A stretch of 64,000 nt of DNA from UHGV virus genome UHGV-1455077. One strand, 5' to 3'. A program made the translations under genes and the position numbers. How positions within the stretch are numbered: position 1 is the first letter of the stretch; every line of letters starts with the position of its first letter. Source of the stretch: a virus. Below are positions 4,315-60,270 of the stretch, piece by piece. The notes under the pieces were generated by a model. The model ran no database searches. It had not been told where the DNA came from and was given only the letters and a program-made list of their open reading frames with translations.

Positions 4315-6117
4315 ATGAGATACAACCAAATATTAAATAAAACAATTAACAAATATAATAACTTCCTTTTTAATAAAATATTAAATGAAGGAATTGAAGA
4401 CATAAAAAAATATTTTCCAAAATTAGATGAAAAATCTTTACGTAAATTAATTTCTCTTGACCCAACTTATAAAGGCGGAGAACAATTAGGAAAATATGGT
4501 CAATGGATTATACGTTTATTCTATAATAATATAAAAAATATTGAGCGTAAAAAACAATTTAATGAATTATTACAACAATATCCAGATGGAATTAATCCTA
4601 AAACAGGTCAAAAATTTGAACAACCTAAAATGTTACCTGCTATTAAATCAGAAGATTTAGAAAAAATTCCAAATTCGTTAAAACAATATGAAATATATAA
4701 AAATAAAATTAAAAAGCCTATTGATTTATTTAAAACATTACCAGAATTAGATACGGAACTTGAAAAAATTAAATCATTAGGTATTCCAACAGATAAAAAA
4801 GTATTAGATAGATATAATCTTTTTGAAAAATATGCTGATAAAGGATTAAAGAAAATTTTTGAAAATGCTGATTGGATTATTGCAATTCCAACAAAATTAG
4901 AATGTTCAGTTCCATTTGGTGAATATACTTCTTGGTGTACAACATCACCTCACGGAAAATATTACTATTATTATTCTGATAAAGGATTATTATACATTCT
5001 TTTAAATAAGAAAACAGGGGAATTTTATCAATTCCACTTTGAAACTCAATCTTTTATGGATGCATCTGACAGTAGAATTAATATGGATACTTTTACAGAA
5101 AAATATCCTGACATTGCTAAATTTTTATTTAATTATCAAAAAGATTCTGTTGAAAATAAACCTTCACCTTTAATTCAACTACAAGAAACTTTTTCGGATT
5201 TATTAAAAAATCCAAATGAAATGAATAAAAGATTATTTCCATCAATTCATAATTTTAAAATTGAAGGAGATACAATAACAGGAACTATTGATTCATTTGA
5301 TGAGCTTGAAGATGTATATGATGATAATAGATATTCTATATCATTTGATTGGATTGATAAATTTATTCAAGACCCATATACTACTATAGATTTTCATCCA
5401 AGCTATTCCATTAGTGAAATCCAAAATATGTATATTGGTACCGATTGGGATAATTATGCCAAAAAAAATAATTTAAATATTTCTTTTGATGATTTATGTA
5501 CATTGGTAAGTATTTCTGATGAATTACCACAAAATCTTGAAACATTTTTAAATGAAGAATTTTCAGATTTAGGTGGATTTGTTGATACAGTTACCTCATT
5601 AGAAGAAACAGGAACAATAGATGAAGTTTTTAAACAGATTAAAGATTCTTTAGAATCGAATTTTCCAATATTTAAAAATATTGAATTTATAGATGATAAT
5701 ATTAAAATTTATTTAGAAATGCCTGTTCAATTTGCTTTTACTTATCTTGTTGTTGATAAATTAGGTTTAGATATTTTAGAAAAAGGAAATATTCCTTCTT
5801 ATAAAGAACCTATTCAACAGGAATTTAATTTTAATGAATCTAAATATAAATTTAAAGATGAATGGTATATGCAATGGGTTAAATATGATGACGATGATGA
5901 CCCTTGGGCATATAATGAAGAATATGAAAGAAATTGGTTATATGTTTATCGTTATTCTATAGATGATGGAAATGGTAAATTTAGTATTAGCGAATCAAAT
6001 TATAACTGGTATGGATTTGATGAGTCAGATTGGAAAATTATTTGTAACAATAGCACCGAAGAATTAAAACAATTAATTGGTGATAAAACATTACAAGATT
6101 TTATTAGTCAAGAATAA
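4315..6117 (+). CDS. Hypothetical protein, paralogue family A (SWCT motif family)
   Basis: 600 aa; shares N-terminal and central SWCT...LY.I.NK...DA(S/N)DS regions with minus-strand ORF 29307-31019. Confidence 0.5.
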   Translation: MRYNQILNKTINKYNNFLFNKILNEGIEDIKKYFPKLDEKSLRKLISLDPTYKGGEQLGKYGQWIIRLFYNNIKNIERKKQFNELLQQYPDGINPKTGQKFEQPKMLPAIKSEDLEKIPNSLKQYEIYKNKIKKPIDLFKTLPELDTELEKIKSLGIPTDKKVLDRYNLFEKYADKGLKKIFENADWIIAIPTKLECSVPFGEYTSWCTTSPHGKYYYYYSDKGLLYILLNKKTGEFYQFHFETQSFMDASDSRINMDTFTEKYPDIAKFLFNYQKDSVENKPSPLIQLQETFSDLLKNPNEMNKRLFPSIHNFKIEGDTITGTIDSFDELEDVYDDNRYSISFDWIDKFIQDPYTTIDFHPSYSISEIQNMYIGTDWDNYAKKNNLNISFDDLCTLVSISDELPQNLETFLNEEFSDLGGFVDTVTSLEETGTIDEVFKQIKDSLESNFPIFKNIEFIDDNIKIYLEMPVQFAFTYLVVDKLGLDILEKGNIPSYKEPIQQEFNFNESKYKFKDEWYMQWVKYDDDDDPWAYNEEYERNWLYVYRYSIDDGNGKFSISESNYNWYGFDESDWKIICNNSTEELKQLIGDKTLQDFISQE

Positions 6118-9865: not shown

Positions 9866-9877
9866 AGGAAAAAAATT

Positions 9878-12042: not shown

Positions 12043-12045
12043 TTT

Positions 12046-13242: not shown

Positions 13243-13243
13243 A

Positions 13244-26443: not shown

Positions 26444-26942
26444 AGGTAATTCATTTGAACGAGAAGTTGCCAAATTTTTAACTACTATTTTTAATGAGCA
26501 TTTTAATAGAAATATTAGCGGTAGTGGTTCATATATTGGTGGTAATAATATTTATAGAAAGCAGATATTATCAGATTCGCAGGTTTGGAATAATCAAGGA
26601 GATATAATTTGTCCTGATTCATTTAATGGTAAACTTATAATAGAATGTAAATTTTATAAAGATTTTCCTTTTCATCATTTTTTAATTAATAAATCAATCC
26701 CTTTATTAGATGATTGGATAAAACAACAACTTACTATTGTAGAGGATAATAATATTTGGTTTATTGTATTTAAAATAAATCGTGTTGGAAGTTACATAGT
26801 TATTCCTGAAAAAATAATAGATATTGATGATTCATTGGGAAATCATTCAATATATTATAATAATGGAAATAGATATATCATAGCAGAATTTGAATCTTTT
26901 ATTAAATTATATAAAAATCAGATTAAAGAAAAATGCCTTTAA
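26409..26942 (+). CDS. PD-(D/E)xK nuclease-like protein
   Basis: FEREVAKFL...GDIICPD...LIIECKFYK; overlaps the 3' end of the GIY-YIG gene by 35 nt. Confidence 0.4.
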   Translation: MGKNMTSPAKNKGNSFEREVAKFLTTIFNEHFNRNISGSGSYIGGNNIYRKQILSDSQVWNNQGDIICPDSFNGKLIIECKFYKDFPFHHFLINKSIPLLDDWIKQQLTIVEDNNIWFIVFKINRVGSYIVIPEKIIDIDDSLGNHSIYYNNGNRYIIAEFESFIKLYKNQIKEKCL

Positions 26943-28728
26943 TATTATTTCCATAATATCCATTTAATATTGCTTGTACGCCTTCTTTGGAAATTGATTG
27001 ACCGTCATAGTTTGATATTTTTTGTTTAATGCTTTCATCTGTTCCTGTAACTTTTGTATCATTAAAACGTGATAATAAATGACGACATAAGTTAATAAAT
27101 TTTGGTTTATTTTTATAAAAATTAAAATAAAAATATTCAGTTTTTTGTCCTTGTTTAAAGCATTTTAACATAAATTCATATGATGCTGGGTCACAACTGA
27201 ATAATATAGCATCAGATGACATAATATATTTAATATCTTCTTGTATTTCTGTTAATTTATTTTCTGTTAGAACATTCTTTTTTAATAAGAAGTATTCAAT
27301 AACAATTTTATTATTAAACATATCAATAGTATCTTGTTCCATATGTATTTTAGGAAAATAAGTTTTTAATATTGAATTATTATCTAATTTTTTTGCTTGT
27401 TCTATAAACCATTTTTTGTCATCATCAGTATAACCATCATTTTTTTTAAAATTATAATCTTGAAAATATACATTTCCATTATATGCAAATAAATGTTTGG
27501 TATTTCTAACATCATATTCTTCTTCAACTTGATGATGAAGTAATGGAGTATCGGCTGACCATATAGCAATTCCTGTATTTGATAATAAAATACGATACCA
27601 TTTATTTCTTTTTACTAAATCATTAAATTCTTTTTTTGTGGGATTTAATAATACTTCAATATCATCAATATAATCATAATCTTCCATAATGTTACTTGAA
27701 TTATCAACCATTCTTTGAGGTAATTGGTCTTTTGTATTTAATCCAACTCCTCTTATATCATATTTTTTAAATTGAATATTTTTAAATAATGGAACTTGTT
27801 GCATTTTTTTAAGTTCATCTGGAGCATTATAATAAGATGGAGCTAATTCATTATTTCTAAAAATAACATATTGATTATCATCTAATTTTCCAATAAAAGC
27901 ATATTTATATCCATCAGAACGAGAAAAGGATTTATAATCAGTTTCATCAATTACTTTAAACATTGCACAATTTTTATCCAGATATTCATAAATTTCTTTA
28001 TCAACAATTGGATATGACAAATGCTCTTTTCCATATAATTTCATTTTTTCAATTAAATCTGCGTGAATAACATTATATGCATCGCCAAAAATATAAATTT
28101 TATGTTTTAAATCATATATTCCACGAACAGGGTTTTTGGTTAATAATGTTGAAATCATTTGTTTAGCTTCAGATTCAGAAGATGTATAATAAAGAATAGG
28201 ATTTTCTGAATAATCTTTAACAAAAGATTCATATATGTTATTACTATTGGGATTCCAATCACCATTATTATCAATTGATTTAATTTGATTTGGCTCAAAT
28301 ACAATTATTTCACTTACAAAATCCATACCATTTTCAGGAAATCCAACAATAATACCATCATAATCTTTTAATAATTCTTTATTTCTAAAATAAACAGCTT
28401 TTTCTAATTCTTCTGGCATATCTCTATTAAACCAAAGAGGATTTTCCATTTTTAAATAAACAGATTTTAATTTAGAACCATAAGATTTTCCAACACTATA
28501 ATTAGGAGTAAAATAAATTCCAGCACCAAAATGACCATTTATTGATTTATTAAAAGAATTAAATTTGTTATTTGTTCCGTGATAGCAAATTAATGGATTG
28601 CCATTTTCATCTACGATTTTAGAATTGCCAAACCATTTCCAAAAATTATCATTTAAATTATTATTTAAATCATTTTTAGATTCTTTAACAAGTTCTTTAA
28701 TTAAATTATTATATTTGCCACGATACAT
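26923..28728 (-). CDS. Large protein with an N-terminal PARP-like (H-Y-E) ADP-ribosyltransferase domain
   Basis: CYHGTNNKFNSF...GAGIYFTPNYSVGKSY parallels PARP WHGSRTTNFAGI...GKGIYFADMVSKSANY; C-terminal region homologous to ORF 51068-53182. Confidence 0.6.
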   Translation of the reverse strand: MYRGKYNNLIKELVKESKNDLNNNLNDNFWKWFGNSKIVDENGNPLICYHGTNNKFNSFNKSINGHFGAGIYFTPNYSVGKSYGSKLKSVYLKMENPLWFNRDMPEELEKAVYFRNKELLKDYDGIIVGFPENGMDFVSEIIVFEPNQIKSIDNNGDWNPNSNNIYESFVKDYSENPILYYTSSESEAKQMISTLLTKNPVRGIYDLKHKIYIFGDAYNVIHADLIEKMKLYGKEHLSYPIVDKEIYEYLDKNCAMFKVIDETDYKSFSRSDGYKYAFIGKLDDNQYVIFRNNELAPSYYNAPDELKKMQQVPLFKNIQFKKYDIRGVGLNTKDQLPQRMVDNSSNIMEDYDYIDDIEVLLNPTKKEFNDLVKRNKWYRILLSNTGIAIWSADTPLLHHQVEEEYDVRNTKHLFAYNGNVYFQDYNFKKNDGYTDDDKKWFIEQAKKLDNNSILKTYFPKIHMEQDTIDMFNNKIVIEYFLLKKNVLTENKLTEIQEDIKYIMSSDAILFSCDPASYEFMLKCFKQGQKTEYFYFNFYKNKPKFINLCRHLLSRFNDTKVTGTDESIKQKISNYDGQSISKEGVQAILNGYYGNNIKGIFL

Positions 28729-28737
28729 TCATAATCC

Positions 28738-29307
28738 TTAATAACATAACATAATTTTTTCAACATTTCCTAAGACTGATAAAGACATTCTTCTATCATA
28801 TGCTTGAGTATAATTTGGTGTCCAATTTTCATAATATGCTGGGTCATATTGTGGATTTAAATTTGATGTTGGGTAAGGTGCGTGTGTATATGTTGCATCA
28901 TCAACTTTTGAACTCATAATATATGTTTTAGATTTTATATCAAATGGTGCAAATGGAGAACGAACCAATGGCAGATAACTTCTATCTAATTTTGCTCTTA
29001 ACCAAACATATGAACCATTAATATTATAATAATCAGCTTGTCTTTTAACAAGTATTGGATTATAATTAGAATATTCAATGTATGGAGTTTCATTAGTTAA
29101 AGGAATAATAAACCAATCCAAATCTTCTTTAGGTTCATTTTTTAATGAACCTTCTAACCAAATTCTACCAGTAAAATTTGTTGTATGAATGACGATAGTA
29201 TTACTTCTTTTATTGGTTTTATGTAAATTGTATGCAACTGCTTTAACAGCTTTACCAACAAAATCTGTTTTACCACTCATATTATCTAATAAAACTTGTG
29301 TTTGCAT
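28738..29307 (-). CDS. Hypothetical protein
   Basis: 189 aa; ATG overlaps the stop of the upstream gene (TAATG). Confidence 0.45.
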   Translation of the reverse strand: MQTQVLLDNMSGKTDFVGKAVKAVAYNLHKTNKRSNTIVIHTTNFTGRIWLEGSLKNEPKEDLDWFIIPLTNETPYIEYSNYNPILVKRQADYYNINGSYVWLRAKLDRSYLPLVRSPFAPFDIKSKTYIMSSKVDDATYTHAPYPTSNLNPQYDPAYYENWTPNYTQAYDRRMSLSVLGNVEKIMLCY

Positions 29308-31019
29308 TATAATATTACTCCTGAAATTCTTAAAACTTCTTCAATTTCATCATTTTCTTCATCATCATCTTCTTCAATAAATTTATTATATTCTGGTATT
29401 GACATAAAAATATCTAAAATGTCACCTGCATCTTCTTTTGACCATTCTGTTCCATATTGAGAAAAATCAATATTATTGATTGAAATATCTCCTTCTTCTT
29501 CATCAATGTAAAGATTTAAATCATCATAAACTTCATTTAATGATTTTTGACCATTATTTGTATATTCACGATAAAATTGTTCGACACTATGGCAATCATA
29601 TAATGTATATATGAAGTTATATTCATAATCAGTATATTTGGAACGTGATGGTGGTGTCCAGCCGAACTTACGTAATTGGTCATAAACATATTCATCAATA
29701 ACTTGATTAAATGTAGATTTTGAAATTTTTTTATAAATTAATTCTTCCCATTTATTATCTTTAGATGAAAACCATTTTTCAAGATTTTTATCATTATATT
29801 TTGAATCATTTGTATTAAATAAAGTATTTAAAAATTTTTCAAAATCAATATCATCAGATGATAAACTATTTTCTTTAAGATAAAATTTATATAATGTTTT
29901 TAATTGTGTATCTTCCCAATTTACATCTTCAACAAAACTTATATCTTGAATAGCTTTTTTGTAAAATTTAGAAACGTTATAACCACTCGGATAATCTAAA
30001 TAACCATTCATTGCCATTTCTTTATAATCATTAATATCAGTTAAATAGTTGTGTCTTAATAGTGTTGAATAAGAAATCTGTAAAGCAATTTCTCCAACAT
30101 CTGTACGTGTTAAATCATATTCATATGCAATATCATTTTCTCTGTCTTCATCCCATTCATCGTCTTCTGAAGGGTCTTCAAGATTTTTATATGAATTAGT
30201 TACATCTTCTTGGGTTAAAAAGAAATCTAATAATTCTGGATTTTCGTGTACAAATTCTCTAAATTTAACAGAATCATTATTGGCATCTCTAAATTCACGG
30301 TCTCTGCCTTGATATTCATCAGGGACAAATAATTGCAATTTTTCTTTTTGATTATCTTTATTAATAATAACATATAAAGTTCCATCAGCAGTATAATTAT
30401 CATAATATAAACAATTATCACCGCCAGTACACCAAGATGCTCCTCGTCTTAATGCTTTAGAACCTTCATAAGTATGAGGTGTCCAAACTTCCCAATTATC
30501 TCCATTAAATAATAACTCAACAGCACCGTCCATATACATACCAGGTTTTTTTTCACCTTGTAATTCTTTTTGGTTTCTTTTAGCATCTTTATTTTTTTGA
30601 TTAACAGTTAGATTGTCTTTGGCAGTTGATAATGCATTTTTTAATTCATCAATTGTTTTATAACTGTTAATATCATTGCTAGGTAATAAATTTTTTCTAT
30701 TTTTTGCTTGGGTAAATGCTTTAAGATATTGTTGCATTTTTTCTGGAGATATATTTTTTAATTCTCCAATTTTATTCATTTTTAATAACCAACGACTATA
30801 ATTTTCAGGTGTTGAAGCTAAGACATCATTAGATAAATTTTGGATATTTCCTAAAACAGGGTCAAATGAAATTAAATATTTAAATTCTTCATCAGATAAA
30901 TTTGAAGCATTTTTTTGACGGACATCTAAAAGGGATTCATTTAATATTGAACTAAAATGAATATTATTAATATTAACTTTTTTTCCTAAATGTATTTTAT
31001 TAAAATATGAAAGTTTCAT
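29307..31019 (-). CDS. Hypothetical protein, paralogue family A; C-terminus ends in the shared linker motif EEVLRISGVIL
   Basis: 570 aa; SWCTGG...LYVIINK...DANNDS similar to ORF 4315-6117. Confidence 0.5.
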   Translation of the reverse strand: MKLSYFNKIHLGKKVNINNIHFSSILNESLLDVRQKNASNLSDEEFKYLISFDPVLGNIQNLSNDVLASTPENYSRWLLKMNKIGELKNISPEKMQQYLKAFTQAKNRKNLLPSNDINSYKTIDELKNALSTAKDNLTVNQKNKDAKRNQKELQGEKKPGMYMDGAVELLFNGDNWEVWTPHTYEGSKALRRGASWCTGGDNCLYYDNYTADGTLYVIINKDNQKEKLQLFVPDEYQGRDREFRDANNDSVKFREFVHENPELLDFFLTQEDVTNSYKNLEDPSEDDEWDEDRENDIAYEYDLTRTDVGEIALQISYSTLLRHNYLTDINDYKEMAMNGYLDYPSGYNVSKFYKKAIQDISFVEDVNWEDTQLKTLYKFYLKENSLSSDDIDFEKFLNTLFNTNDSKYNDKNLEKWFSSKDNKWEELIYKKISKSTFNQVIDEYVYDQLRKFGWTPPSRSKYTDYEYNFIYTLYDCHSVEQFYREYTNNGQKSLNEVYDDLNLYIDEEEGDISINNIDFSQYGTEWSKEDAGDILDIFMSIPEYNKFIEEDDDEENDEIEEVLRISGVIL

Positions 31020-36723: not shown

Positions 36724-37465
36724 TATTGAATTAATAAATGATAATTGTTTATCTATTTTAGATGACTTTATTTTAAAAAATCGTAGGGTTGATTGTATTA
36801 TTACATCTCCACCTTACAATATGAATTTAAGAATTATGAAAGGAAAATATATTTCTCGGTGTAATAATAAAAACCATAAAATAGAATTTTCGACAAAGTA
36901 TGAAAATTATAATGATGACCTTTCAATGGAAGATTATTTTAATTTTCAAAAAGAATTTATTGAAAAGGCATTAAAAGTTTCTGATTTGATATTTTATAAT
37001 ATACAAATGATAACAGGTAATAAAATAGCATTATTTCAATTAATGGGTTATTTTGCTGATAAAATTAAAGAGATTATTATTTGGGATAAAGGTTATAGTC
37101 AGCCTGCAATGCAAGTTGGTATGTTAAATAGTCAATTTGAATTTATCATTGTATTTGATAATAATAAACCATATAATAGAGCATTTGATTGTGCAAAATT
37201 TACCAGAGGGACTGAATCAAATGTTTGGGAAATTAAACGTGAAAGAAATAAATTTATTAAAGCGGGTTTTCCAAAATCATTAATTGAAAAAATTTTAATA
37301 AATTTTACAAATGAAAATGATACAATTCTTGACCCTTTTATGGGAAGTGGAACTTGTGGTATTGTTTGCAAAGAAATGGATAGAAATTTTATTGGTATTG
37401 AATTAGATGAAAATTATTTTAATATCGCTAAGGAGAGAATTGAAAATATAAATAATGACAAATAG
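36692..37465 (+). CDS. DNA methyltransferase, beta-class (N6-adenine or N4-cytosine)
   Basis: Motif IV SPPY precedes motif I DPFMGSGT; start may instead be ATG 36716. Confidence 0.75.
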   Translation: MDLQKLLEMSNIELINDNCLSILDDFILKNRRVDCIITSPPYNMNLRIMKGKYISRCNNKNHKIEFSTKYENYNDDLSMEDYFNFQKEFIEKALKVSDLIFYNIQMITGNKIALFQLMGYFADKIKEIIIWDKGYSQPAMQVGMLNSQFEFIIVFDNNKPYNRAFDCAKFTRGTESNVWEIKRERNKFIKAGFPKSLIEKILINFTNENDTILDPFMGSGTCGIVCKEMDRNFIGIELDENYFNIAKERIENINNDK

Positions 37466-37474: not shown

Positions 37475-38125
37475 ATGAAAGTTTCAACATTATACTTAGC
37501 AGATATTTCTGAATATGATAATTTTATTGAAAAGCTATTCAATGAAATTAATAAAAAGTTTGTTGGAAAAAAAATAAATTCCATTTTGATTAGTCGTTTT
37601 ATTTCTTATTTAAGAAAAGAATTTTCGGCATATGCTTCAATTAAGTTAAATAAAAAAATTAATGTATTAGTATATATTCCAAGAATATCAACAAATGTTA
37701 TTGAATCAAATATATGTAATGATATTAATAAGATTAAAATTCGTATTAATTATGATAAATTAAATGAAATTTTAGAAGGTAAATGTGAGAATTTAGAAGA
37801 TTATATTAATGAATTAGTAAGTCAATTTAATGATTATGTTTTAGAAAAACCAACTTATAATTTTTCAAATTATTTAAGTTTACAAATTGATAATTTAGTT
37901 GATATATGTTATAATGAATTAATTTGTACATATCAGCCAATGATATTGTTTAATAAAATTATGAAAAATAAAGGATGGCTAACATTATCCAGAAAATCAT
38001 CTATATTTAATGATTATTATAAATTATTTCAACAAAATAAGATTGAAAATAAAAACATTTTTCATAAATTTTTATATAAATTAATTTTAAAAATTAAGGA
38101 AACATTAAATGAAATCACCAATTAA
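37475..38125 (+). CDS. Hypothetical protein
   Basis: 216 aa, between the two methyltransferase genes. Confidence 0.45.
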   Translation: MKVSTLYLADISEYDNFIEKLFNEINKKFVGKKINSILISRFISYLRKEFSAYASIKLNKKINVLVYIPRISTNVIESNICNDINKIKIRINYDKLNEILEGKCENLEDYINELVSQFNDYVLEKPTYNFSNYLSLQIDNLVDICYNELICTYQPMILFNKIMKNKGWLTLSRKSSIFNDYYKLFQQNKIENKNIFHKFLYKLILKIKETLNEITN

Positions 38126-38885
38126 ATATTATGGGGGAAAATCATATATGACAAATATTATTATTAATCATTTTCCAAAAGAGTATGATATTTATGTAGA
38201 AGGTTTTGGTGGTGGAGCATCTGTTTTATTTCAAAAAGATAAAACAGCTCTTGAAGTTTATAATGATTTAGGAGAAAATGTTTATTCTTTATTTAAAGTT
38301 CTTTCAGATAAAGAAATGTTTCTTAAATTAAAAGAAAGAATGGACTTGGCAGTATATTCTGCACAATTACGAGAAGAATATAAAAAAGATTTAAAAACAA
38401 ATTTAAGTTTAGAAGATAGAGCTTATAAATTTTTATATGTAAATAGGTCATCTTTTAACGGTGTCGGTGGTTTTTCTACAACAATGATAGTTAGAAGAAA
38501 TATGAGTAAATCGACATCTGATTTTCTGGCAATGATTGATAAATTGCCAGAAATACATAATCGTTTATCTTCAGTTATCATTGAACATAGAGATATTTTT
38601 GATTTATTAGACAAATATAATAAAGAAAATGTGTTTATGTATTTAGACCCACCATATGTTAAAGAAACAAGATTATCAAATCAGTTGTATGAATGTGAGA
38701 TGACCGATGAACAGCATTTACAACTGTGTGAAAAGTTATTAACATTTAAAGGTAAAATATTATTATCAGGATATGATAATGAAATATATAAAATTTTAGA
38801 TTCTAAATTTAAAAAAGTATCTTTTGAAAGTCCAAATTCAGGCTCAACAGCCATTGAAACATTATGGATGAATTATGATTGTTGA
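38109..38885 (+). CDS. dam: DNA adenine methyltransferase, Dam family (alpha class)
   Basis: N-terminal KYYGGKSY...EGFGGGASV; DPPY motif; 258 aa. Confidence 0.8.
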   Translation: MKSPIKYYGGKSYMTNIIINHFPKEYDIYVEGFGGGASVLFQKDKTALEVYNDLGENVYSLFKVLSDKEMFLKLKERMDLAVYSAQLREEYKKDLKTNLSLEDRAYKFLYVNRSSFNGVGGFSTTMIVRRNMSKSTSDFLAMIDKLPEIHNRLSSVIIEHRDIFDLLDKYNKENVFMYLDPPYVKETRLSNQLYECEMTDEQHLQLCEKLLTFKGKILLSGYDNEIYKILDSKFKKVSFESPNSGSTAIETLWMNYDC

Positions 38886-50374: not shown

Positions 50375-51064
50375 ATGAAATTATGTGAAGATTTAAGAGA
50401 AAAAGATTTAGCCAATTTAATTTCTTCTTATGTAAGTGTTGATGAATATACTTCAAAAATTGATGAAGATAATATTACTGTTGCTTTTTTTGTTAATGAA
50501 TTAGATGCCGCTGAAGAATTAGAAGATTTTATTGAGAAATTTTATTATATTGAAATTAGAGATATTGAAATTTCAGATTCTTTAACTGATGATAACAAAT
50601 ATATTATTTTTGTTGAATTAGAAAGAAATGATAGTTTTCCTAAAATATTTTTAGATATGATTGATACAATAAATTATGTAGCTGATAATAAAGATTGGAA
50701 TTTTTCTACCTATCAAATGAATAAGCCTGTTGAATTATCATTAGCTAATATTAGAAAATATGTTCGTTTAAGTAAATTAAGAGATACAGCGAATGTAGAG
50801 GAAAAAGAAAATAATCAAGAAGAAGTACAAGAAAGTTATCAACCATTTTTAGTTAATGATAATGGTTGGATAAGAAAATATACTCCAAAACGTTATATTA
50901 CAGAAGATGAATTAGAAAAAATTATTGAAAGTTCTGAAACATTAAATAGTCGTGATGATGGAGAGGTATCTTTATTAGAAAATGCATTTCCTGGTTATGA
51001 AGTTATTACAACAGATAACAATGTATTTTTAATTAAACATAATAAAATTTTAATGATGGAATAA
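50375..51064 (+). CDS. Hypothetical acidic protein
   Basis: 229 aa. Confidence 0.4.
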   Translation: MKLCEDLREKDLANLISSYVSVDEYTSKIDEDNITVAFFVNELDAAEELEDFIEKFYYIEIRDIEISDSLTDDNKYIIFVELERNDSFPKIFLDMIDTINYVADNKDWNFSTYQMNKPVELSLANIRKYVRLSKLRDTANVEEKENNQEEVQESYQPFLVNDNGWIRKYTPKRYITEDELEKIIESSETLNSRDDGEVSLLENAFPGYEVITTDNNVFLIKHNKILMME

Positions 51065-51067: not shown

Positions 51068-53182
51068 ATGAAATTATATAGAGGTTATAATAAAGATTAT
51101 CCAAATTGGGGAATTAGACCAAATCAAAATTATATTTGGACGACTGATGATATTGATTATGCATTAGAGTATACTAAATTATTTGATAATGGCGGTTTAG
51201 TTGAATTTGATGTAGATGTAAATCAATTAAATTTAGCAGATGATTATGATGGTGAAGAATTATTTGGCGATGAATGGTATGATTTTGGTGGTTTGATTGA
51301 TGCTGATAATGATATGATTCAAGTTTTTATAGATAATGGTTTTAATTCAGCATTATTAGATAATAGTGGGATTGATTGTTATTTATTATTTGATAAAAAA
51401 TTAATTAAATCCGCAAAAGAATTACCATTAAATAATATTGAAAATAAATTAAATGAATCTTATCAATTATTTAAAAATATATATTTAAAAGAACATACAG
51501 GATTTATCGTAAGAGAAACACCAGCATCATATCTAACATATATAAAAAATTACATACAAAAAGTTCTTGATTATGAGCCAAATGCAAACAATTATCCCTT
51601 TATTACAGAAGATAAAAAATATTATTGGGATAGAATTGCAGGATATTATAATGTAGATACTAAAGAATTCATTTATATTTCACCCGATGAAACACATCAA
51701 AATGAAGAAGAATTTTATGAAAAAAATTATGTAAGATTTTTTATAGCAGATATAAAACATAGAGCATTATATGTTTCACATATTGATTATAATATTGCCT
51801 ATAAAGGCTATAAAGCTATAAAAGAAAAATATAAAGATTTTGGAATTGAATATTCTGTTGTTGAATGGTATGAAAACAATGATTGGAAAGAAATAACTTT
51901 TGATGATAAAGGACATAAAGTTAAAATAACTCAAATTTATGAAGAATTTAAAAAATATGTAATGCCATTATATGAACAACATTTTAATAAAGAAATTAAT
52001 GAAGTTTTAAGAATTGCTGGGGTTCAACGATTAAATGAATCTTGGACGGATAGTAATAATTTATATAATATATATGAAAATTATACACCATATAATGTTT
52101 TAGTGGCATTTAAAGAAGGTGAAAAAAACATTTGGTTTCCATTGATTAAACCAACAGAATATAAACAAGCGTTATTGGAATTTATGAAAATGGGTGAATT
52201 AGTAAGATTTCCAAAAGATAAAGTATTTAAATGGTTAGAAATAATTATGAAAAATACTTGTATTTTAAGCTCTAATACTTTTTTAGCAGGTCACGAAATG
52301 TATTTTCCATTTGACGATATTATAGATGCTTATCCAGAAGCAGAAAATCTTGAACAAGATTATTATGTTTTTTCTAAATTTTTAGAAGATAAAGGTTTTT
52401 ATAATTGGTGTAAATTGCCAGATGGTTCACCTGCTTGGAGTGATTATGGATTAAAACCATTATGGAATATATTAGATGAATATAAAGAAGATATGACTAT
52501 TGAACAAGTTCTTGTATTGGTTAATAGATGTTTAGATGTTTATCATCAACAAGGAGATTTAGCATCAGCATTTATTGAAGGTGGTTCATCATCATTAACA
52601 AAAATTTCTAATGAATGTGTTAAAAATAATGGTAATATAATTAATGAATCATATTTGAAAACAGATAATGGGATAATTTATTATACAAAATCAGAAAATG
52701 TTTTTATTAATACTATAAATGCAAGATTTAAGAATATACCTGTTAGAGTAATTTATGATTTAAAAAATAGATTATATGTATTTGGTGATGCTAATAAATT
52801 TGTTCATACACAAATGATGAATTATATTCTTATTAACACAAAATTATATTCTACAAAAGGGTGGAATCAAAGTTATTTTAATGAAGATGGTAATTATTGG
52901 CGAGATGGATATATAGAGGATAATTTATTTAATGCACAATGTGCTTTATTTCAAATAATTTGGGATGATGATATTGAAAAATATACAAAATATGATGGAT
53001 ATGATACAGGATATTTTACCACAATAGATAATAAAATGTATGTTGTTTGTAGACAGAATGAATTAAAATATTGTGAAAAAGTACCTTTATTATGGAATAA
53101 TCATTGGTTTTCACAAAAATATGATAATATGAAAGATTTTCAATTAAATGAATCTATATTTGGAGAAACACTTGGTTATTAA
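51068..53182 (+). CDS. Large modular protein; the N-terminus may be an R-S-E (Alt-like) ADP-ribosyltransferase; internal linker motif; C-terminal domain shared with ORF 26923-28728
   Basis: LYRGY...WTTDD...EY at N-terminus; NEVLRIAGVQRLNE at about aa 309-322; VRVIYDLKNRLYVFGDANKFVH resembles VRGIYDLKHKIYIFGDAYNVIH. Confidence 0.5.
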   Translation: MKLYRGYNKDYPNWGIRPNQNYIWTTDDIDYALEYTKLFDNGGLVEFDVDVNQLNLADDYDGEELFGDEWYDFGGLIDADNDMIQVFIDNGFNSALLDNSGIDCYLLFDKKLIKSAKELPLNNIENKLNESYQLFKNIYLKEHTGFIVRETPASYLTYIKNYIQKVLDYEPNANNYPFITEDKKYYWDRIAGYYNVDTKEFIYISPDETHQNEEEFYEKNYVRFFIADIKHRALYVSHIDYNIAYKGYKAIKEKYKDFGIEYSVVEWYENNDWKEITFDDKGHKVKITQIYEEFKKYVMPLYEQHFNKEINEVLRIAGVQRLNESWTDSNNLYNIYENYTPYNVLVAFKEGEKNIWFPLIKPTEYKQALLEFMKMGELVRFPKDKVFKWLEIIMKNTCILSSNTFLAGHEMYFPFDDIIDAYPEAENLEQDYYVFSKFLEDKGFYNWCKLPDGSPAWSDYGLKPLWNILDEYKEDMTIEQVLVLVNRCLDVYHQQGDLASAFIEGGSSSLTKISNECVKNNGNIINESYLKTDNGIIYYTKSENVFINTINARFKNIPVRVIYDLKNRLYVFGDANKFVHTQMMNYILINTKLYSTKGWNQSYFNEDGNYWRDGYIEDNLFNAQCALFQIIWDDDIEKYTKYDGYDTGYFTTIDNKMYVVCRQNELKYCEKVPLLWNNHWFSQKYDNMKDFQLNESIFGETLGY

Positions 53183-53648: not shown

Positions 53649-54020
53649 ATGAAAACTTCTGATGAATTGAATGAACTGATGGCTTATGCTACTGGAACTG
53701 AAAATTATTATCGTTTCGGTTTGATTAATCCAATTCTTATTACCGATGGAGTTGAAACATTTGCAAAAAATGCTGAAACTGTTTGGTTTTTGAATGACTT
53801 TTGCATTTTTATGAATAAATGGATTAATAAAAATGCTGATGAGTATTTGTTTTCTGTTGAATTAATTTCTAAAAATGACAAAGGAAAAATGGTCATTAAA
53901 GATGGTGAAGGCAATAGATTGTATTCAAAAAATTATGATTATACTGACTGCCCAGAAGGAAATTGGAAATTCTTTTATGATAAAGAATCAAGAGTGTTGA
54001 TGTGGCACGGTGAATATTAA
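53649..54020 (+). CDS. Hypothetical protein
   Basis: 123 aa. Confidence 0.45.
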   Translation: MKTSDELNELMAYATGTENYYRFGLINPILITDGVETFAKNAETVWFLNDFCIFMNKWINKNADEYLFSVELISKNDKGKMVIKDGEGNRLYSKNYDYTDCPEGNWKFFYDKESRVLMWHGEY

Positions 54021-54075: not shown

Positions 54076-54774
54076 ATGGAAATATCAAAATTTATGAAGA
54101 CTGTTTTAGAAATGGCTGGCGTTGAAGAACCGTTAGAAGAAATGGCTTATCCAATAAATTTTAATTTAGAAGAATTTTCTCGTATTCCAACATTTAGTGG
54201 AAGAAAAAAATATTGTGATGAGCGTTTGCAAAAAATAGGTACAGGTTCTTCCAGAATTGTTTACAGAGTTGATGATGAAAAGGCGTTAAAAATAGCTAAA
54301 AATAAAAAAGGTATTGCTCAAAATGAACACGAAGCTGATTGGGGTAGAAATAATTATGATATTTTTGCAAAAATTTATGAAGCTGATGAGAATAATTATA
54401 CTTGGATTGAAATGGAATTGGCATCAAAAATTAAACCATCTGATTTTAAAAGATTAGTTGGTGTTTCTTGGGCAGAAGTATGTTTAACAATAGAATATAT
54501 TTATGATATATATAAACCTAATAAAAATCCATATTATGTTAAAAGATATAATAGTGATTTAATGGAAAAATTTATGAATGAAGAAGTTTATTCAGAAAAA
54601 AATGAATTTCTTTTTAATTTATATGGATATATGACAGATTATCAACCAATGATGATTAATGATTGGACAAGAATCGCAAACTGGGGGATAGTTGAACGTA
54701 ATGGGCAGGAATTACCTGTTATTATTGATGATGGATTGGATGAATTAATTTATAAAACTTATTATGGATGGTAG
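54076..54774 (+). CDS. Hypothetical protein whose N-terminus carries the shared linker motif
   Basis: MEISKFMKTVLEMAGVEEPLEE resembles NEVLRIAGVQRLNE. Confidence 0.45.
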   Translation: MEISKFMKTVLEMAGVEEPLEEMAYPINFNLEEFSRIPTFSGRKKYCDERLQKIGTGSSRIVYRVDDEKALKIAKNKKGIAQNEHEADWGRNNYDIFAKIYEADENNYTWIEMELASKIKPSDFKRLVGVSWAEVCLTIEYIYDIYKPNKNPYYVKRYNSDLMEKFMNEEVYSEKNEFLFNLYGYMTDYQPMMINDWTRIANWGIVERNGQELPVIIDDGLDELIYKTYYGW

Positions 54775-54777
54775 AAA

Positions 54778-56175
54778 ATGAAAATAATTGCATATCACGG
54801 AAGTCAAACAAGTAAATTGAAAATGTATAATGGTTCTGCTTTGTATTTTACAACAAGTTATGAACAAGCTAAATCATATGCTAAACGTGAATGGGATGAA
54901 GGGCTAATTGAGGGAGAAATTCCTGTTGTATATAAAGCTGAATTAACTTTTAATAATCCTTACAAAATTGAAAATTATGATGATTTTCAAATGGAATTTA
55001 CAGATAGTAATATGAATGAATATTTTAGAGAAGAATTAATTGAAAAAGGATATGATTCTGCTATTTATAATGATAGAAAATCAACTTTGATATGTATTTT
55101 TTATCCTTCACAATATAAAATTTTAGATATAGAAAAACTTCCACCTTCATTAGACTATTATTATAATGGAGAACTTAATGATGAAGATGATGATATAAAT
55201 GACTATTATTATGAAAACGACTATGAAGATGAATTAAATGAAGTATTAAAATTATCTAATATTAAACTTATTAATGAGCAAAAAGATTTTACAACATTTC
55301 AATTACCTAAAAATATACCAAGTAATTTTTTTAAAATAACTAATTCATTAAAAGATATAAAAAATTGGAAAGCGAGAATTTTAGAAAATAATAGTGGCGG
55401 TGAAGAATTAAAAGTTGGTGATTATGATGAAGTTGGATATGTAATGATTTCATTAAAAGATAATACTATTATTCCAATTGCTCATTCCGATGAACATCAT
55501 CGTGGATATGATATTATGTATGAAATATATGAATCAAAATATAAAATTCATCCGAGTAATTTTTATAGCGTTTATTGCTTACCAAATTCTGCCAATTATC
55601 CATATAGTAAAGAAGAAGCTGATAAATTAAAAGATGCTTTAATTAAATGTGATGAATATGGAATGGATTTGGATACATCTAAAGTTTATTTAAAATATAT
55701 TGATAGTCTTTATAAAAATAAATCATATGATGAATCTTTAATTTCTGCCAGAGATTTTATTTCTGGAAAATATGGGTTGGCATCATTTGGAGAAACTGTT
55801 TCTCTTATTGGTGAGAAGTTGGTAGATGCATTTAAAAATTTATCAAATACATTTGAAAATACAAATGTTCGTGGAGATATTCCAATAACACAATTAAAAA
55901 TGGCTGTTAAAAAATTATATACAGTTGGTAGTCGTATTCAACTTCCAGATAAATTTAAGTTAATCAATCCATTAGATTTAGAAGAAATGATGGATATTAT
56001 TGAACAATATAAATCTAAATATATTGATATACAAAAATTATATAAATTATTTTTTGGATTTAATGGATTTAGAAATATTTTTCATCAAAGACTAAGAAAA
56101 AATATTGGCAATGAAGATTTAAATAAACAATTAGGTTCAGTTAAAGTTGTCATTGAAATGATAGGGGCAATATAA
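54778..56175 (+). CDS. Protein with an N-terminal PARP-like (H-Y-E) ADP-ribosyltransferase domain and an internal linker motif
   Basis: AYHGSQTSKLKMYNGSALYFTTSYEQAKSYA; linker DELNEVLKLSNIKLINE at about aa 152-168. Confidence 0.55.
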   Translation: MKIIAYHGSQTSKLKMYNGSALYFTTSYEQAKSYAKREWDEGLIEGEIPVVYKAELTFNNPYKIENYDDFQMEFTDSNMNEYFREELIEKGYDSAIYNDRKSTLICIFYPSQYKILDIEKLPPSLDYYYNGELNDEDDDINDYYYENDYEDELNEVLKLSNIKLINEQKDFTTFQLPKNIPSNFFKITNSLKDIKNWKARILENNSGGEELKVGDYDEVGYVMISLKDNTIIPIAHSDEHHRGYDIMYEIYESKYKIHPSNFYSVYCLPNSANYPYSKEEADKLKDALIKCDEYGMDLDTSKVYLKYIDSLYKNKSYDESLISARDFISGKYGLASFGETVSLIGEKLVDAFKNLSNTFENTNVRGDIPITQLKMAVKKLYTVGSRIQLPDKFKLINPLDLEEMMDIIEQYKSKYIDIQKLYKLFFGFNGFRNIFHQRLRKNIGNEDLNKQLGSVKVVIEMIGAI

Positions 56176-56957
56176 TGTTTGAAAAAGAAATTAATGAAAT
56201 ATTAAAATTATCAGGTATAGATATTTTAAATGAAATATCCTTATCTGGTTATTTGGAACGTTCACGTAATTTAAAAAATATGTTATTTCACGGAACATCA
56301 TTATTTAATGCTTATAAAATTTTTGAATCAGACCTTATAATAGGTTATACAGAAACAACACCTGTGAATGGTAAATCTTATACTGGTGTATCAACATCAA
56401 GAAATTTTGATTATTCAGCAAAGTTCGCTTTACAATATTCAGATGATTACCATTTTAAAAATTATTATTTAGATAATATATTTAATCCTGTTGTTGTTTT
56501 TTGTTTTAATAAAGATAATTTAAAATCAAAATATAAAATAGTTCCATATGATTATAATAGTACAAATGATAGTTTTTATAGTAAAAGAACCGAACAAGAA
56601 GAAGTTATTGTTGGAAATATTAAAAATATTAAAAATATAACAGAAAAAGTTGTTATGAATAAAGATGCTTTAACTCTTTTTCAATATGGTGCTATAGGTG
56701 AATTTTTAATTAAAAGATATTATTTCTTTAATAATAAAGAAGAAGAATTTTATGATGATATATTTGATATAGCCATAGAAGAAAATTTAACTTATGACGA
56801 AGATAAAGATGTATATATAACATCTGCGGGTGAAACATTATATCCTGATGATATTTATAATATTGGTTTAGAAAAAATGATTCAAAAAATGTTTCCTAAA
56901 ATGAATGAATTTTATGAATTTTTAAAAGATAAAAAATTCGAAATATATAATAATTAA
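56175..56957 (+). CDS. ART-like protein (HGT...GKSYTGVSTS) with an N-terminal linker motif; translationally coupled to the upstream gene
   Basis: MFEKEINEILKLSGIDILNE; FHGTSLFNAY; TAATG overlap. Confidence 0.45.
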   Translation: MFEKEINEILKLSGIDILNEISLSGYLERSRNLKNMLFHGTSLFNAYKIFESDLIIGYTETTPVNGKSYTGVSTSRNFDYSAKFALQYSDDYHFKNYYLDNIFNPVVVFCFNKDNLKSKYKIVPYDYNSTNDSFYSKRTEQEEVIVGNIKNIKNITEKVVMNKDALTLFQYGAIGEFLIKRYYFFNNKEEEFYDDIFDIAIEENLTYDEDKDVYITSAGETLYPDDIYNIGLEKMIQKMFPKMNEFYEFLKDKKFEIYNN

Positions 56958-57331: not shown

Positions 57332-58009
57332 ATGTCATTTTTTAATTTAAAAAAAATAAAATCCCTGACAAAATTAAATAAAATTTATAGATTACTAAGT
57401 AAAACATATCATCCAGATAATAAAGTAACAGGTAATGCAGAGCAATTTATAGAATTGAAAGAAGAATATGATAATGCTAAAAAAATAGTATCATCATTGC
57501 CAACTTCAATTGTTATCAATATAACTACAACTCAAGCTTTTAAGGGAAAAGAGGTAATTTATAATTCTAAAAATGGCGAAACTGCCATAATTAAAATACC
57601 ACCAAAATTTTATAAACAAGATAATGTATTAATTAAAGATAATAATGGTAACAAGTATATTGTTTCTGTAAATATTAAACCAGACGAAGATGAAAATATT
57701 ACTTATTCTCGGAATGGCGATATAATTATTACAAAATATATTGATGTTACTCCTCTTGATTTGTTAACAGAAAATATCAAAACATTTAAATTATTTGGTG
57801 AAGAAAAGAAAATTCAAATAACTAAAAATTTAATTAATAATATTCAACAACCTTTTATGTTGTTAAATATTGGTTATCCATTGAAAAAAGATAGAAAAAA
57901 ACGTGGAAATGTTAAGATTAAATTTAGAATTAAATCTATTACATTAGATGATAATGATAAAAAAGATATTGTTAGAATGAAGGAAAAATATAAATGTCAA
58001 TTGAATTAA
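57332..58009 (+). CDS. J-domain protein (DnaJ-like co-chaperone)
   Basis: LNKIYRLLSKTYHPDNK with HPD tripeptide; 225 aa. Confidence 0.6.
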   Translation: MSFFNLKKIKSLTKLNKIYRLLSKTYHPDNKVTGNAEQFIELKEEYDNAKKIVSSLPTSIVINITTTQAFKGKEVIYNSKNGETAIIKIPPKFYKQDNVLIKDNNGNKYIVSVNIKPDEDENITYSRNGDIIITKYIDVTPLDLLTENIKTFKLFGEEKKIQITKNLINNIQQPFMLLNIGYPLKKDRKKRGNVKIKFRIKSITLDDNDKKDIVRMKEKYKCQLN

Positions 58010-60270
58010 ATGAACAAAGTATGTTAACTGAAATAGGGTTACAAGCTACCGAATTTCTTAAAAAATCTAAGGCTAAAACATTATTACCTGTGCATTTTTT
58101 AGCGGCTTTGTTACAATTTGATTATATTAAAAATCTTCTAAATAATAAAAAACCAGAAGAATATAAAAAATTGGTTGAAGAAGTTAATGATTTCATTTTT
58201 AATTCAGATAAAATTGAAAAGTTAACTGATGAAGATGACCCAAATGAAATGGAAATTAGTCCTTTAATAAGTGCTTACATTTCATATGTGAGTGTATGCA
58301 GTAAAGGAAGTGCTGATATTATAAAAGTTATTCCTGAACTACATTGGATTGATTTATTAGGAGCATTTTTATTTTTAAAGACTGATATTTCAACAATTAT
58401 TTTAACAAAATATGGAATTAATTTAGAGTTTATTGATGAAGTTTTTGAAGAACTGACCGCTGATATTATTATTGAAGAAAGAATCAAACCAATTATCAAT
58501 AATCAAACCAATGAAAATAATGCGGAAGAAGAATATTTGAAATCTTTTACAATAAATTTAACTGAAAAAGTTAAATCTACTGATTGGATTCCTATTGTTG
58601 GAAGAACAGACGATTTAGATTTAATAAAACAAATTTTATTAAGAAAAGACAAACCTAATGTTTTATTGGTTGGATATTCAGGTGTAGGTAAAACAAAATT
58701 AGTTGAAGGTTTGGCTTATGATTATTTAACATATGATAAGAATACAACATTTTTACAATTAGATACATTATCTTTAATGTCAAATATTGGTATTAAAGGT
58801 GAGTTAGAAAATCGTATTAAAAATTTGTATAGAATTATGATGAAAAAAGAAAATATTATATTATTCATTGATGAAATTCATACAGTATGTAATTCATCTC
58901 CTAATTCTGGGCAAATTGATATATCTAATTTATTAAAACCATTACTAACTGATGGAAAATTAAAACTTATAGGGGCAACAACATTTGAAGAATATAGAAA
59001 ATATATGGAAGATGATGAAGCTTTTACCAGAAGATTTTATAAATTAGTTATTAATGAGCCAACATTTGAAGAAACACAAAAAATTCTTGCTCAAATTTCA
59101 TCAAAATATGAATATTTTTATAAAATAAAATATTTAAAAAGAGCAAGAGATTCAATTTTGGATTTAACAAAAAAATATATGTTTGAAAAACATTTTCCTG
59201 AAAAAGCTATTGATGTACTGGATATGGCAGGAGCATATTGTAAGCATATTAATGAATGTGTATGTGATGTTCCACAAATTCAACAAACAATTGCTAGAAT
59301 GTTAAATCTTCCATTATCAACTGTTTCCCAGACTGAAGAAAATATGTATCAGCATATTGAAGAAAACCTTAAAAAAGAAATCATTGGTCAAGATGAAGCT
59401 GTTAAACAAGTAAGTGATGCTGTAATCATTTCTCGGTCTGGCTTACGAGAATCAAATAAAACAGCATCTTCGCTGATGTTTAAGGGTTCTTCTGGTGTGG
59501 GTAAAACAGAATTATGTAAAGTATTAGCTAAATCAATGAATATACCATTGATACGTTTTGATATGTCAGAATATATGGAAGAACATTCTGTACCAAAATT
59601 AATTGGTGCCCCTCCAGGATATAAAGATGCAGGCAATGGTAAAGCAGGAAATGGATTATTAATTAATGCAATTGATGAAAATCCATATTGCATATTATTA
59701 CTTGATGAGATAGAAAAAGCTCATCCGAAAATTCATAATTTACTTTTACAAGTAATGGATAATGGTAAATTAACATCGTCAATGGGTAAAAGTGTATCTT
59801 TTGAAAATGTATTTTTAATTATGACTTCAAATGTTGGGTCATATAATAGTCATAAAATTCGTATTGGATTTGGTAATACTGATGAAAGTCCATCTGATAA
59901 GGATTTTGAAGATAGCTTTTTGCCTGAATTTAGAAATCGTATTGATTCAGTAATTACATTTAATGATTTACCATTAAATGTGTTAAAAGAAATTTGTAAA
60001 AAATTTCTTAATGAATTAAAAGAAATGTTAAAGCAAAAAAAGATTGATTTTGTTTTTAATGATGATATTATAGAGTATATCATTTCAAAGGTTAAATCAT
60101 CTAAAGATGGTGCAAGACCGATGAAGCACGTTATTACTAATGAAATCAAAAATGAAATAGCAAAAAATATTGTATTTGGAAAATACAATAAAAATGATAA
60201 AATAAAATTATCAATTAAAAACAATATTATTAATTTTGAGGTTGTGAAAAAATGTTTGAAAGAAGATTAA
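57994..60270 (+). CDS. clpA: ClpA-like AAA+ unfoldase (two ATPase domains)
   Basis: 758 aa; Clp-N-like N-terminus; Walker A GYSGVGKT (D1) and GSSGVGKT (D2); LLLDEIEKAH Walker B; no ClpB middle domain. Confidence 0.75.
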   Translation: MSIELNEQSMLTEIGLQATEFLKKSKAKTLLPVHFLAALLQFDYIKNLLNNKKPEEYKKLVEEVNDFIFNSDKIEKLTDEDDPNEMEISPLISAYISYVSVCSKGSADIIKVIPELHWIDLLGAFLFLKTDISTIILTKYGINLEFIDEVFEELTADIIIEERIKPIINNQTNENNAEEEYLKSFTINLTEKVKSTDWIPIVGRTDDLDLIKQILLRKDKPNVLLVGYSGVGKTKLVEGLAYDYLTYDKNTTFLQLDTLSLMSNIGIKGELENRIKNLYRIMMKKENIILFIDEIHTVCNSSPNSGQIDISNLLKPLLTDGKLKLIGATTFEEYRKYMEDDEAFTRRFYKLVINEPTFEETQKILAQISSKYEYFYKIKYLKRARDSILDLTKKYMFEKHFPEKAIDVLDMAGAYCKHINECVCDVPQIQQTIARMLNLPLSTVSQTEENMYQHIEENLKKEIIGQDEAVKQVSDAVIISRSGLRESNKTASSLMFKGSSGVGKTELCKVLAKSMNIPLIRFDMSEYMEEHSVPKLIGAPPGYKDAGNGKAGNGLLINAIDENPYCILLLDEIEKAHPKIHNLLLQVMDNGKLTSSMGKSVSFENVFLIMTSNVGSYNSHKIRIGFGNTDESPSDKDFEDSFLPEFRNRIDSVITFNDLPLNVLKEICKKFLNELKEMLKQKKIDFVFNDDIIEYIISKVKSSKDGARPMKHVITNEIKNEIAKNIVFGKYNKNDKIKLSIKNNIINFEVVKKCLKED

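Follow-up and report, generated by a model that had tools for sequence, protein, structure and literature searches.

The window analyzed here, a stretch of 64,000 nucleotides (nt) from virus genome UHGV-1455077, encodes several candidate effector proteins, including those of a gene cluster at positions 54,076 to 56,957, that share a peptide motif of approximately 20 residues with two sites, approximately 12 residues apart, that fit the rule for the T4 prohead protease gp21. Based on sequence comparison and on analogy with known phage systems, we propose, with a probability of about one half, that this motif is a portable cassette for capsid targeting and cleavage that doubles as a joint for module exchange. 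In phage T4, gp21 cleaves after Glu in L/I-x-E, and targeting sequences of 10 residues load the scaffolding core with Alt and diverse anti-defense proteins (PMC9026906, PMC3012670, PMC5694885). By the mechanism that we propose, effector proteins with ADP-ribosyltransferase (ART)-PolyVal-like, PARP-like, kinase-like, and other modules would be made together with the virion genes, and the peptide would bind the prohead scaffolding core or inner shell, like the T4 capsid targeting sequence. A prohead protease of the gp21 family (Peptidase_S77) would then cleave at both the cassette and the [LI]-N-E sites before each module, which would release separate effector domains to be injected with the DNA; each of these steps, namely binding, packaging, cleavage, and injection, is one that we infer. 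Conservation of the cassette between modules that are otherwise unrelated could also let it be used as a joint for module exchange between strains. An earlier reading of the window (hereafter the original prediction) had taken the motif to be a processing or targeting signal, a recombination joint, or both, and each gains partial comparative support, the signal from conserved L-x-E borders and S77 proteases in relatives, and the joint from breakpoints at the motif.

Four strong copies of [FY]xxE[IL]xE-xL[KR][IL][SA]G[VI]-x(1-2)-[LI]NE are present in the window, within open reading frames (ORFs) 51068, 54778, 56175, and 29307. The copy in ORF 54778 is located between an N-terminal ART-PolyVal-like domain (amino acids [aa] 4-114) and the downstream region, and it carries Asn in place of the motif Gly, where relatives of approximately 91% identity read DDEIDEVLKRAGIQINEE. 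The ATG of ORF 56175 overlaps the stop codon of ORF 54778, and its copy precedes a weak PARP-like ART region (aa 30-88). The C-terminal copy of ORF 29307 is preceded by an acidic run, and a homologue of the ORF 29307 module in contig L003 runs into a full internal motif and more modules. All five peptides quoted by the original prediction occur in the window where it placed them, and its count of at least five motif-bearing proteins holds for the four strong copies, whereas the fifth, in ORF 54076, is degenerate and went undetected by a profile of the motif. Run over the window, this profile returned no copy beyond those already known. A sixth match to the regular expression, MDLQKLLEMSNIELIND at the N-terminus of DNA methylase 36692, is probably a chance occurrence. 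The consensus given earlier is real but too short, as it omitted a conserved aromatic residue four positions before the first I/L; the wider consensus, drawn from approximately 55 distinct copies, is [FY]-[DN]-x-E-I-x-E-x-L-[RK]-[LI]-[AS]-G-[VI]-x(1-2)-[LI]-N-E-[ASED]. It comprises a helix-forming stretch with an acidic start, a Gly cap, and a short tail to [LI]-N-E, and in approximately 50 of the 55 distinct copies both ends ([IL]-x-E and [LI]-N-E) fit L/I-x-E.

The motif core [IL]xE[VI]L[KR][IL][SA][GN][VI], a pattern chosen post hoc from the data themselves, was observed 4 times among the 19,839 coding residues of the window genes, with 1.2e-4 occurrences expected and 0 found in 1000 shuffles. 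Conservation at the level of DNA had also been claimed, and the shared strings GAAGTTTTAAGAATT and TATTAAAATTATC do exist, but they consist of the preferred codons of a genome with 25% G+C. The codons for Gly, Ser, and Val vary among copies (Gly is GGG, GGT, GGA, or GGC), and any two copies agree at 16-24 of 30 nt and share no identical run longer than 15 nt. We therefore rejected DNA-level conservation as evidence of a recombination signal, since codon bias accounts for the similarity. The copies resemble one another at the DNA level no more than codon bias predicts, and the motif is therefore a signal at the protein level. Taken together, the sequence comparisons place the motif far above chance and indicate that it is selected as a peptide.

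The L-N-E that ends the motif also stands before nearly all modules of these multi-domain effectors. ORF 51068 consists of four modules, three of which are confident in an AlphaFold model built from 51 sequences (residues 1-120, 190-297, and 326-518). The predicted local distance difference test score (pLDDT) falls below 50 over residues 298-323, which is the stretch that holds the motif, and the LNES sites at residues 128 and 525 fall on other predicted domain borders. Overall, [LI]NES occurs 4 times in ORF 51068, compared to 0.048 expected. A corresponding model of ORF 54778, built from 7 sequences, was uninformative (mean pLDDT of 33). Module C was compared across 50 homologues, with identities down to approximately 25-40%. 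Immediately ahead of the domain, within sequence that otherwise cannot be aligned, the last three columns show L/I in 47, N in 32, and E in 45 of the homologues. Other modules likewise follow LNE (DSEK-LNE-NYDG, ESNT-LNE-EIAF, EKSN-LNE-SISF, and SQQ-LNE-GKYT), and the ORF 29307 module in L003 begins right after ILNE or after the motif. Module B, which is a free gene in L003, keeps the site at its start (MKLEES-Y, vs NKLNES-Y in the window). Because xNE junctions are also kept in protein P0041 of a phage with 41% G+C, they are not an effect of codon bias. A paralogue of the ORF 29307 module, the 600-aa product of ORF 4315-6117, adjoins a gp13-like neck gene.

The motif is also present on proteins encoded within a head-assembly module. 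In a T4-like contig (L013/L035), the gene order is portal (phrog_213), a 421-aa protein, a 124-aa protein, head maturation protease (phrog_207), a 314-aa protein, and major head protein (phrog_138). The 124-aa protein is acidic, occupies the position of T4 gp68, and begins MSNYNELLDEMLKLAGIPLNE. The 314-aa protein is charged, occupies the position of the gp22 scaffold, and ends QELNEMLKLAGVDIED followed by a stop codon, a layout that matches that of the C-terminal copy of ORF 29307 after its acidic run. The occurrence of the motif on head-assembly proteins of another phage suggests that it probably tags effectors for packing into the capsid and for trimming. The capsid protein of L035 has no close isolate, with a best identity of at most 33%. 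T4's own sites, read from the T4 genome, are FLTE|A, LLRE|S, and LIAE|A.

Further links to a gp21-family protease come from relatives. A relative that shares module C and the kinase-like module (L028/L062) carries the polyvalent gene P0041 9 kb 5' of genes for Terminase, Portal_T4, Peptidase_S77 (PF03420), a scaffold-like protein, and Gp23, with LNE|S in the C-terminal tail of the protease and many xNE|S sites in neighboring acidic proteins. A gp21-family protease is also encoded in L076/L080, which likewise carry the same effector modules or the motif. The virion and structural proteins of the phage that is the source of the window are approximately 30% identical to those of RaK2-group jumbo phages, which have a gp21 homologue; in RaK2, the order is portal, two ORFs, the gp21 homologue, ORF093, and gp23. 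The phage was not among the best 120 of more than 8000 matches to the L028 portal, and T4 gp20, gp21, gp22, gp23, gp24, gp67, and gp68 gave no match to the window proteins.

Comparison of closely related strains suggests that modules are exchanged at the motif. At the locus of ORF 51068, we found at least seven architectures with the motif as common joint. DNA homology between the window and L001/L026 restarts at nt 928 of ORF 51068 (nt 51995), which lies inside the motif, and L032 matches nt 1-378 of ORF 51068 and thereafter only an island of 45 nt, which corresponds to the motif. The free-standing gene in L003 matches module B (nt 379-907 of ORF 51068). Because these homology blocks begin exactly at the motif, the expectation that module boundaries coincide with the motif across paralogues was borne out. 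Other rearrangements nearby used different microhomologies (SKYKI and LE[EK]M), not the motif. Among these are deletions between ORFs 54778 and 56175 (window 54778-56957) in two close relatives, which produced fused genes; they occurred at the microhomologies LEEMMDIIE/LEKMIQKMF in L001 (10001-11290) and SKYKI in P0002, which indicates that the cluster is structurally unstable between strains.

We sought copies beyond the window with a 28-position profile against 1.84 billion representative proteins, with degenerate DNA patterns against IMG/VR, and with one metagenome scan. The profile gave 11 matches, and the three routes together recovered the approximately 55 distinct copies, which have differing codons. 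Nearly all are in AT-rich phage contigs (24-35% G+C) from gut, rumen, and some aquatic samples. Their positions vary, as the motif occurs just after the start Met (P0077, P0081, L017, and L013), between modules, and at C-termini. In P0079, the motif lies between ART-PolyVal and SAM lyase domains; P0074 has three copies and P0076 has two; and P0081, L017, and L039 are small single-domain proteins that bear it. A tblastn search of 50,697 phage records with the consensus peptide returned no match, a text search of the literature for the motif core strings turned up no relevant paper, and the paper on polyvalent proteins describes no linker motif (PMC5512222).

Several look-alikes were rejected. 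The profile match P0073 is a eukaryotic repeat protein with a chance resemblance, multiplied by its 14 repeats of FLQEVLKVSGL. Matches to a loose 8-codon scan for the core, comprising FabH (ESLKIAGININE), a 229-aa marine virion protein, giant fiber-like proteins, and MKKEILKIAGVKSE N-termini, were set aside because the motif flanks are missing. The bacterial FabH-like enzyme (ESLKIAGININEVNWYVPHQ, approximately 50% G+C), present in L068 and approximately 25 other metagenome loci, is a chance look-alike of the core. Large Gln/Gly-rich proteins of the marine viral contigs L055 (267-4076) and L058 (8129-10039) begin MK(A/K)EILKIAGVKSE(K/A)EFYKK, which resembles the motif without its L-N-E ending and may represent either an analogous signal or chance.

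The carrier proteins are more varied than the original prediction held, which described all of them as ART paralogues. ORFs 29307 and 54076 have no ART domain, ORF 54778 matches ART-PolyVal (PF18760) at a borderline 31.0 bits (cutoff of 31.2), and ORF 56175 has a weak PARP match (17.5 bits vs 26.7) and no sequence match in PDB. The N-terminal domain of ORF 51068 has no Pfam match; its best fold match is the ART-like toxin MbcT (E=0.08, probability 0.96), and it is 23% identical to the N-terminal domain of ORF 54778 (E=0.035). That the motif separates an N-terminal ART domain from the remainder of the protein was upheld for ORF 54778 but not for ORF 51068 of the window, where the motif parts module B from module C; in strain variants of ORF 51068, the motif directly follows the ART domain. 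Homologues of module C combine it with GNAT, InPase (PF18823), ART-PolyVal (PF18760), and WG repeats. ORF 54076 has a kinase-like glycine-loop and Lys pattern (GTGSSRIVYRV...ALKIAK) and matches only phrog_4301, which is of unknown function. This kinase-like module also occurs fused into polyvalent proteins, inside the 1434-aa protein in L003 and N-terminally in P0041, and only ELDE or INE then precedes it. A Pfam search of the carrier proteins matched no peptidase family. Overall, the modules found with the motif, which include ART, PARP-like, GNAT, InPase, SAM lyase (P0079), and kinase-like domains, are of the injected-effector type (PMC5512222, PMC7824862).

Among known systems, the closest counterpart that we considered in T4 is the capsid targeting sequence of IPI-III and Alt, which gp21 removes. 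There, as here, a short peptide with a hydrophobic-x-Glu end is the sole feature common to diverse anti-defense and host-takeover proteins; Alt is itself an ADP-ribosyltransferase that is packaged and injected, and the cargo genes are hypervariable. The T4 sequence is MKTYQEFIAE|A. In contrast, the motif described here has approximately 20 residues rather than 10, contains two candidate sites, and, by inspection of its consensus, has no similarity to it beyond I-x-E. A short N-terminal propeptide is found only in ORFs 56175 and 54076, P0077, P0081, and L013, whereas the motif is internal in ORFs 51068 and 54778 and C-terminal in ORF 29307 and the 314-aa protein of L035. Its cargo is multi-domain with extra L-N-E sites at each module border, and the same motif is also on scaffold- or core-position proteins in one contig. 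The T4 core proteins gp67, gp68, and gp22 are similar in that the genes for small acidic proteins and for a scaffold lie between those for portal, protease, and capsid, and gp21 cuts these proteins at closely spaced L/I-x-E sites (gp67, GLIE|A...LFAE|A). The two motif-bearing proteins of L035 occupy these positions, but the T4 proteins lack the motif and their homology to the L035 proteins is not detectable.

Giant phages (phiKZ, 201phi2-1, and SPN3US; gp175/gp245) likewise process many head-internal proteins, including paralogue families, after Glu in a three-residue motif, with several redundant sites in the removed segments and N-termini conserved between diverged paralogues (SPN3US gp53/gp54). 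However, their sites are S/A/G-x-E within N-terminal propeptides that are often more than 100 residues long, whereas the sites described here are of the T4 kind, L/I-(N)-E, and the conserved element is a short cassette that is independent of position. The motif thus differs from both the T4 targeting sequence and the giant-phage propeptides in its length, sequence, two bracketing sites, position independence, and presence on multi-domain cargo and head-assembly-position proteins. By analogy, we infer that it may nevertheless work like them. Encapsulin cargo-loading peptides and the C-terminus of the P22 scaffolding protein are also short terminal peptides that follow a flexible or acidic linker, bind the inside of an HK97-fold shell, and suffice to load unrelated cargo. 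The C-terminal copies of ORF 29307 and the L035 scaffold-position protein share this layout, a likeness of layout for which no sequence relationship is claimed, but protease sites do not flank the encapsulin and P22 peptides.

Polyvalent proteins (Iyer et al., 2017) are multi-domain effectors in which ART-PolyVal, GNAT, InPase, and other domains occur in many architectures, and they are presumed to accompany the DNA on delivery and to be cut into pieces. The carriers resemble them in having two or more effector-type domains in variable architectures (four modules in ORF 51068, and the 1434 aa of the L003 protein) and in their associated families, with PF18760 in ORF 26923 and, at the borderline, ORF 54778, and both PF18823 and PF18760 in homologues. 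Unlike polyvalent proteins, for which in-built zincin-like or other peptidase domains (e.g., assemblin-like) have been proposed, the carriers yielded no such domain in Pfam, and their junctions feature a site of the head-protease type together with a shared peptide.

Several observations weigh against a role in capsid targeting and cleavage. Portal, prohead protease, scaffold, and capsid genes were not found in the window or in the 10-20 kb on either side. The presence of the motif on head-module proteins comes from a single contig of a different T4-like lineage with 35% G+C, the 314-aa protein of that contig has no PHROG match and its scaffold role is assigned by position and composition only, and the scaffolds of two RaK2-like contigs with motif-bearing genes lack the motif. 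The pattern [LI]xE is short, and in a proteome rich in Leu, Ile, and Glu it occurs 336 times compared to 272 expected. Terminal copies may be relics of gene splits, as ORF 56175 starts at the stop codon of ORF 54778 and ORF 29307 ends inside the motif. Finally, the motif is missing from ORF 26923 and from some stand-alone module homologues (P0021, P0023, P0032, and module B in L003). In ORF 26923, the ART domain ends NIYES, as in P0079, where the motif comes next, and the middle module is paralogous to module D of ORF 51068.

We weighed three other explanations of the motif. It could be only a recombination joint or neutral linker, at which homologous recombination swaps effector modules among co-infecting relatives, with no targeting or cleavage. 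The restart of homology between the window and L001/L026, the island in L032, and the many architectures joined at one locus fit this explanation, as does the plasticity that the deletions in L001 and P0002 reveal in the region otherwise. However, exchange at the motif is equally predicted if the cassette is functionally required at joints, and the deletions that were seen used other microhomologies instead. The limited nucleotide identity among copies is explained by codon bias, and the peptide is conserved across phages of 24-35% G+C despite their different codons. Furthermore, the motif occurs on head-module proteins, at extreme termini, and in small single-domain proteins, where no joint is needed, which makes a joint without other function unlikely. 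We consider it more doubtful still that the motif serves as a structural linker, in the form of a Gly-capped helix retained for its folding and without specific recognition, with L-N-E simply a common domain start. L-A-G-[VL] is a common helix C-cap, and AlphaFold models the first half of the motif in ORF 51068 as the tail of a long helix (287-316) and the remainder as coil, as a linker of this kind would predict. Yet a polypeptide usually has one copy rather than one at each joint, conservation of approximately 20 positions extends across unrelated contexts and distant phages, unrelated domain families all begin right after [LI]NE, and the motif is found at free termini.

The motif could instead be a docking or processing signal for a different partner, such as the ClpA/B-like unfoldase encoded at 57994-60270, a dedicated endopeptidase (e.g., zincin-like), or the ejection machinery. 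We regard this as improbable, because the flanking sites fit the Glu-specific L/I-x-E rule of gp21-type proteases and not a known Clp degron or zincin site, the carriers have no peptidase domain identifiable by Pfam, and the motif-bearing proteins in L035 flank the S77 protease gene. These points stand against the proximity of the ATPase and J-domain genes just 3' of the cluster, a ClpB-like gene near the polyvalent and head genes in relative L028, the location of P0076, which has two motif copies, among tail genes (between gp15-like and tail-tube genes), and the proposal that polyvalent proteins are processed by their own metallopeptidase domains (PMC5512222).

More tentatively, the proposed cassette may extend to a strategy of a T4-like, AT-rich lineage, in which one position-independent loading peptide on scaffold or core proteins and on cargo would fill the capsid with effector polyproteins, the head protease would dissect these at L-N-E joints into injected enzymes, and the peptide would be the point of module exchange. 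If true, phages would have an equivalent of the encapsulin cargo-loading peptides that is coupled to polyprotein processing of the viral kind. The proposed cassette itself, if correct, would account for the processing of polyvalent effectors without their own peptidase domain and would tie module shuffling to a functional joint. It would also provide a sequence rule that predicts the packaged and injected proteins of uncultured gut and rumen jumbo phages, i.e., a first-strike arsenal against host defenses, along with the sites at which they are cut into working units. In addition, the peptide would offer a compact tag to load foreign proteins into phage heads, as has been done with the T4 capsid targeting sequence.

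Table 1. Motif copies, L-N-E sites, architectures, and selected genes of the window and its relatives.
Feature	ORF or contig	Coordinates	Strand	Remarks
Motif	ORF 54778-56175	55222..55278, aa 149-167	+	YEDELNEVLKLSNIKLINE; core ELNEVLKLSNIKLINE, aa 152-167, nt 55231-55278
Motif, N-terminus	ORF 56175-56957	56178..56234, aa 2-20	+	FEKEINEILKLSGIDILNE; core EINEILKLSGIDILNE, aa 5-20, nt 56187-56234
Motif	ORF 51068-53182	51983..52039, aa 306-324	+	FNKEINEVLRIAGVQRLNE; core EINEVLRIAGVQRLNE, aa 309-324, nt 51992-52039
Motif, extreme C-terminus	ORF 29307-31019	29310..29348	-	EIEEVLRISGVIL, last 13 residues, then stop
Degenerate motif, N-terminus	ORF 54076-54774	54097..54141, aa 8-22	+	KTVLEMAGVEEPLEE, directly before MAYPINF
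LNES junction 1	ORF 51068	51449..51460, aa 128-131	+	Border of ART-like domain and module B
LNES junction 2	ORF 51068	52031..52042, aa 322-325	+	3' end of motif, directly before module C
INES junction 3	ORF 51068	52640..52651, aa 525-528	+	Border of modules C and D
LNES site 4	ORF 51068	53144..53155, aa 693-696	+	8 residues (IFGETLGY) from C-terminus
L-N-E	ORF 29307	30936..30944, aa 26-28	-	Ends 28-residue N-terminal leader
L-N-E	ORF 4315-6117	4381..4389, aa 23-25	+	Ends 25-residue leader; KILNE, then GIEDIKKYFPK
Architecture at ORF 51068 locus	window			ART-B-motif-C-D
Architecture at ORF 51068 locus	L001			ART-motif-C-D
Architecture at ORF 51068 locus	P0008			ART-B-motif-E
Architecture at ORF 51068 locus	P0022			ART-motif-ART-E
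Architecture at ORF 51068 locus	L032, L033			ART-motif-E
Virion structural protein (phrog_13138)		50375..51064	+	Directly 5' of ORF 51068; pairing also in L003
ART-PolyVal protein without motif	ORF 26923	26923..28728	-	PF18760, E=2e-20

The source of the window is a jumbo phage with a genome of approximately 286 kb. The window is near-identical to IMGVR_UViG_3300045988_152892 (216.8 kb) and to human-gut metagenome contigs of 285-289 kb, and the phage is very common in human gut metagenomes, as one of its virion proteins is indexed in 241 assembly blocks. Its T4-type genes specify a neck protein like gp13, a baseplate wedge like gp25, SbcCD, RNA ligase, and NrdD, and with sheath and baseplate genes as well it is T4-like in morphogenesis. 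The effector genes are interspersed with virion genes of the same orientation. To the left of the window (L005, L008) are terminase halves, sheath, FEN, SHMT, and RtcB, and to its right (L025) are baseplate hub, RNase H, and PTH2. Copies of the T4 late-promoter-like octamer TATAAATA are fewer in the window than expected from shuffles (14 compared to 30) and are not usefully placed upstream of effector genes; one copy lies 25 nt 5' of virion gene 60830.

Other features of the region were also noted. Left of the window, the large terminase appears to be encoded in two pieces (L005 18289-19365 and L008 15755-16882), which are separated by several kb with the sheath gene between them; the second piece includes an intein or homing-like stretch. 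Between effector genes, at 53649-54020, a DUF6876 protein is encoded (PF21781, E=5e-19), and directly 3' of the effector cluster (57332-60270) are genes for a J-domain-like protein (YHPD) and a 758-aa ClpA/B-like double AAA+ ATPase (57994-60270). In the region 9147-14401, radical-SAM proteins (9878-11224 and 13244-14401) follow ThyX, with two ORFs between them, one weakly Fe-S oxidoreductase-like (12046-13242, PHROG E=8e-5) and one unannotated. Two DNA methylases are encoded at 36692-37465 and 38109-38885, and together with the ThyX and radical-SAM genes these may constitute a DNA-modification gene set.

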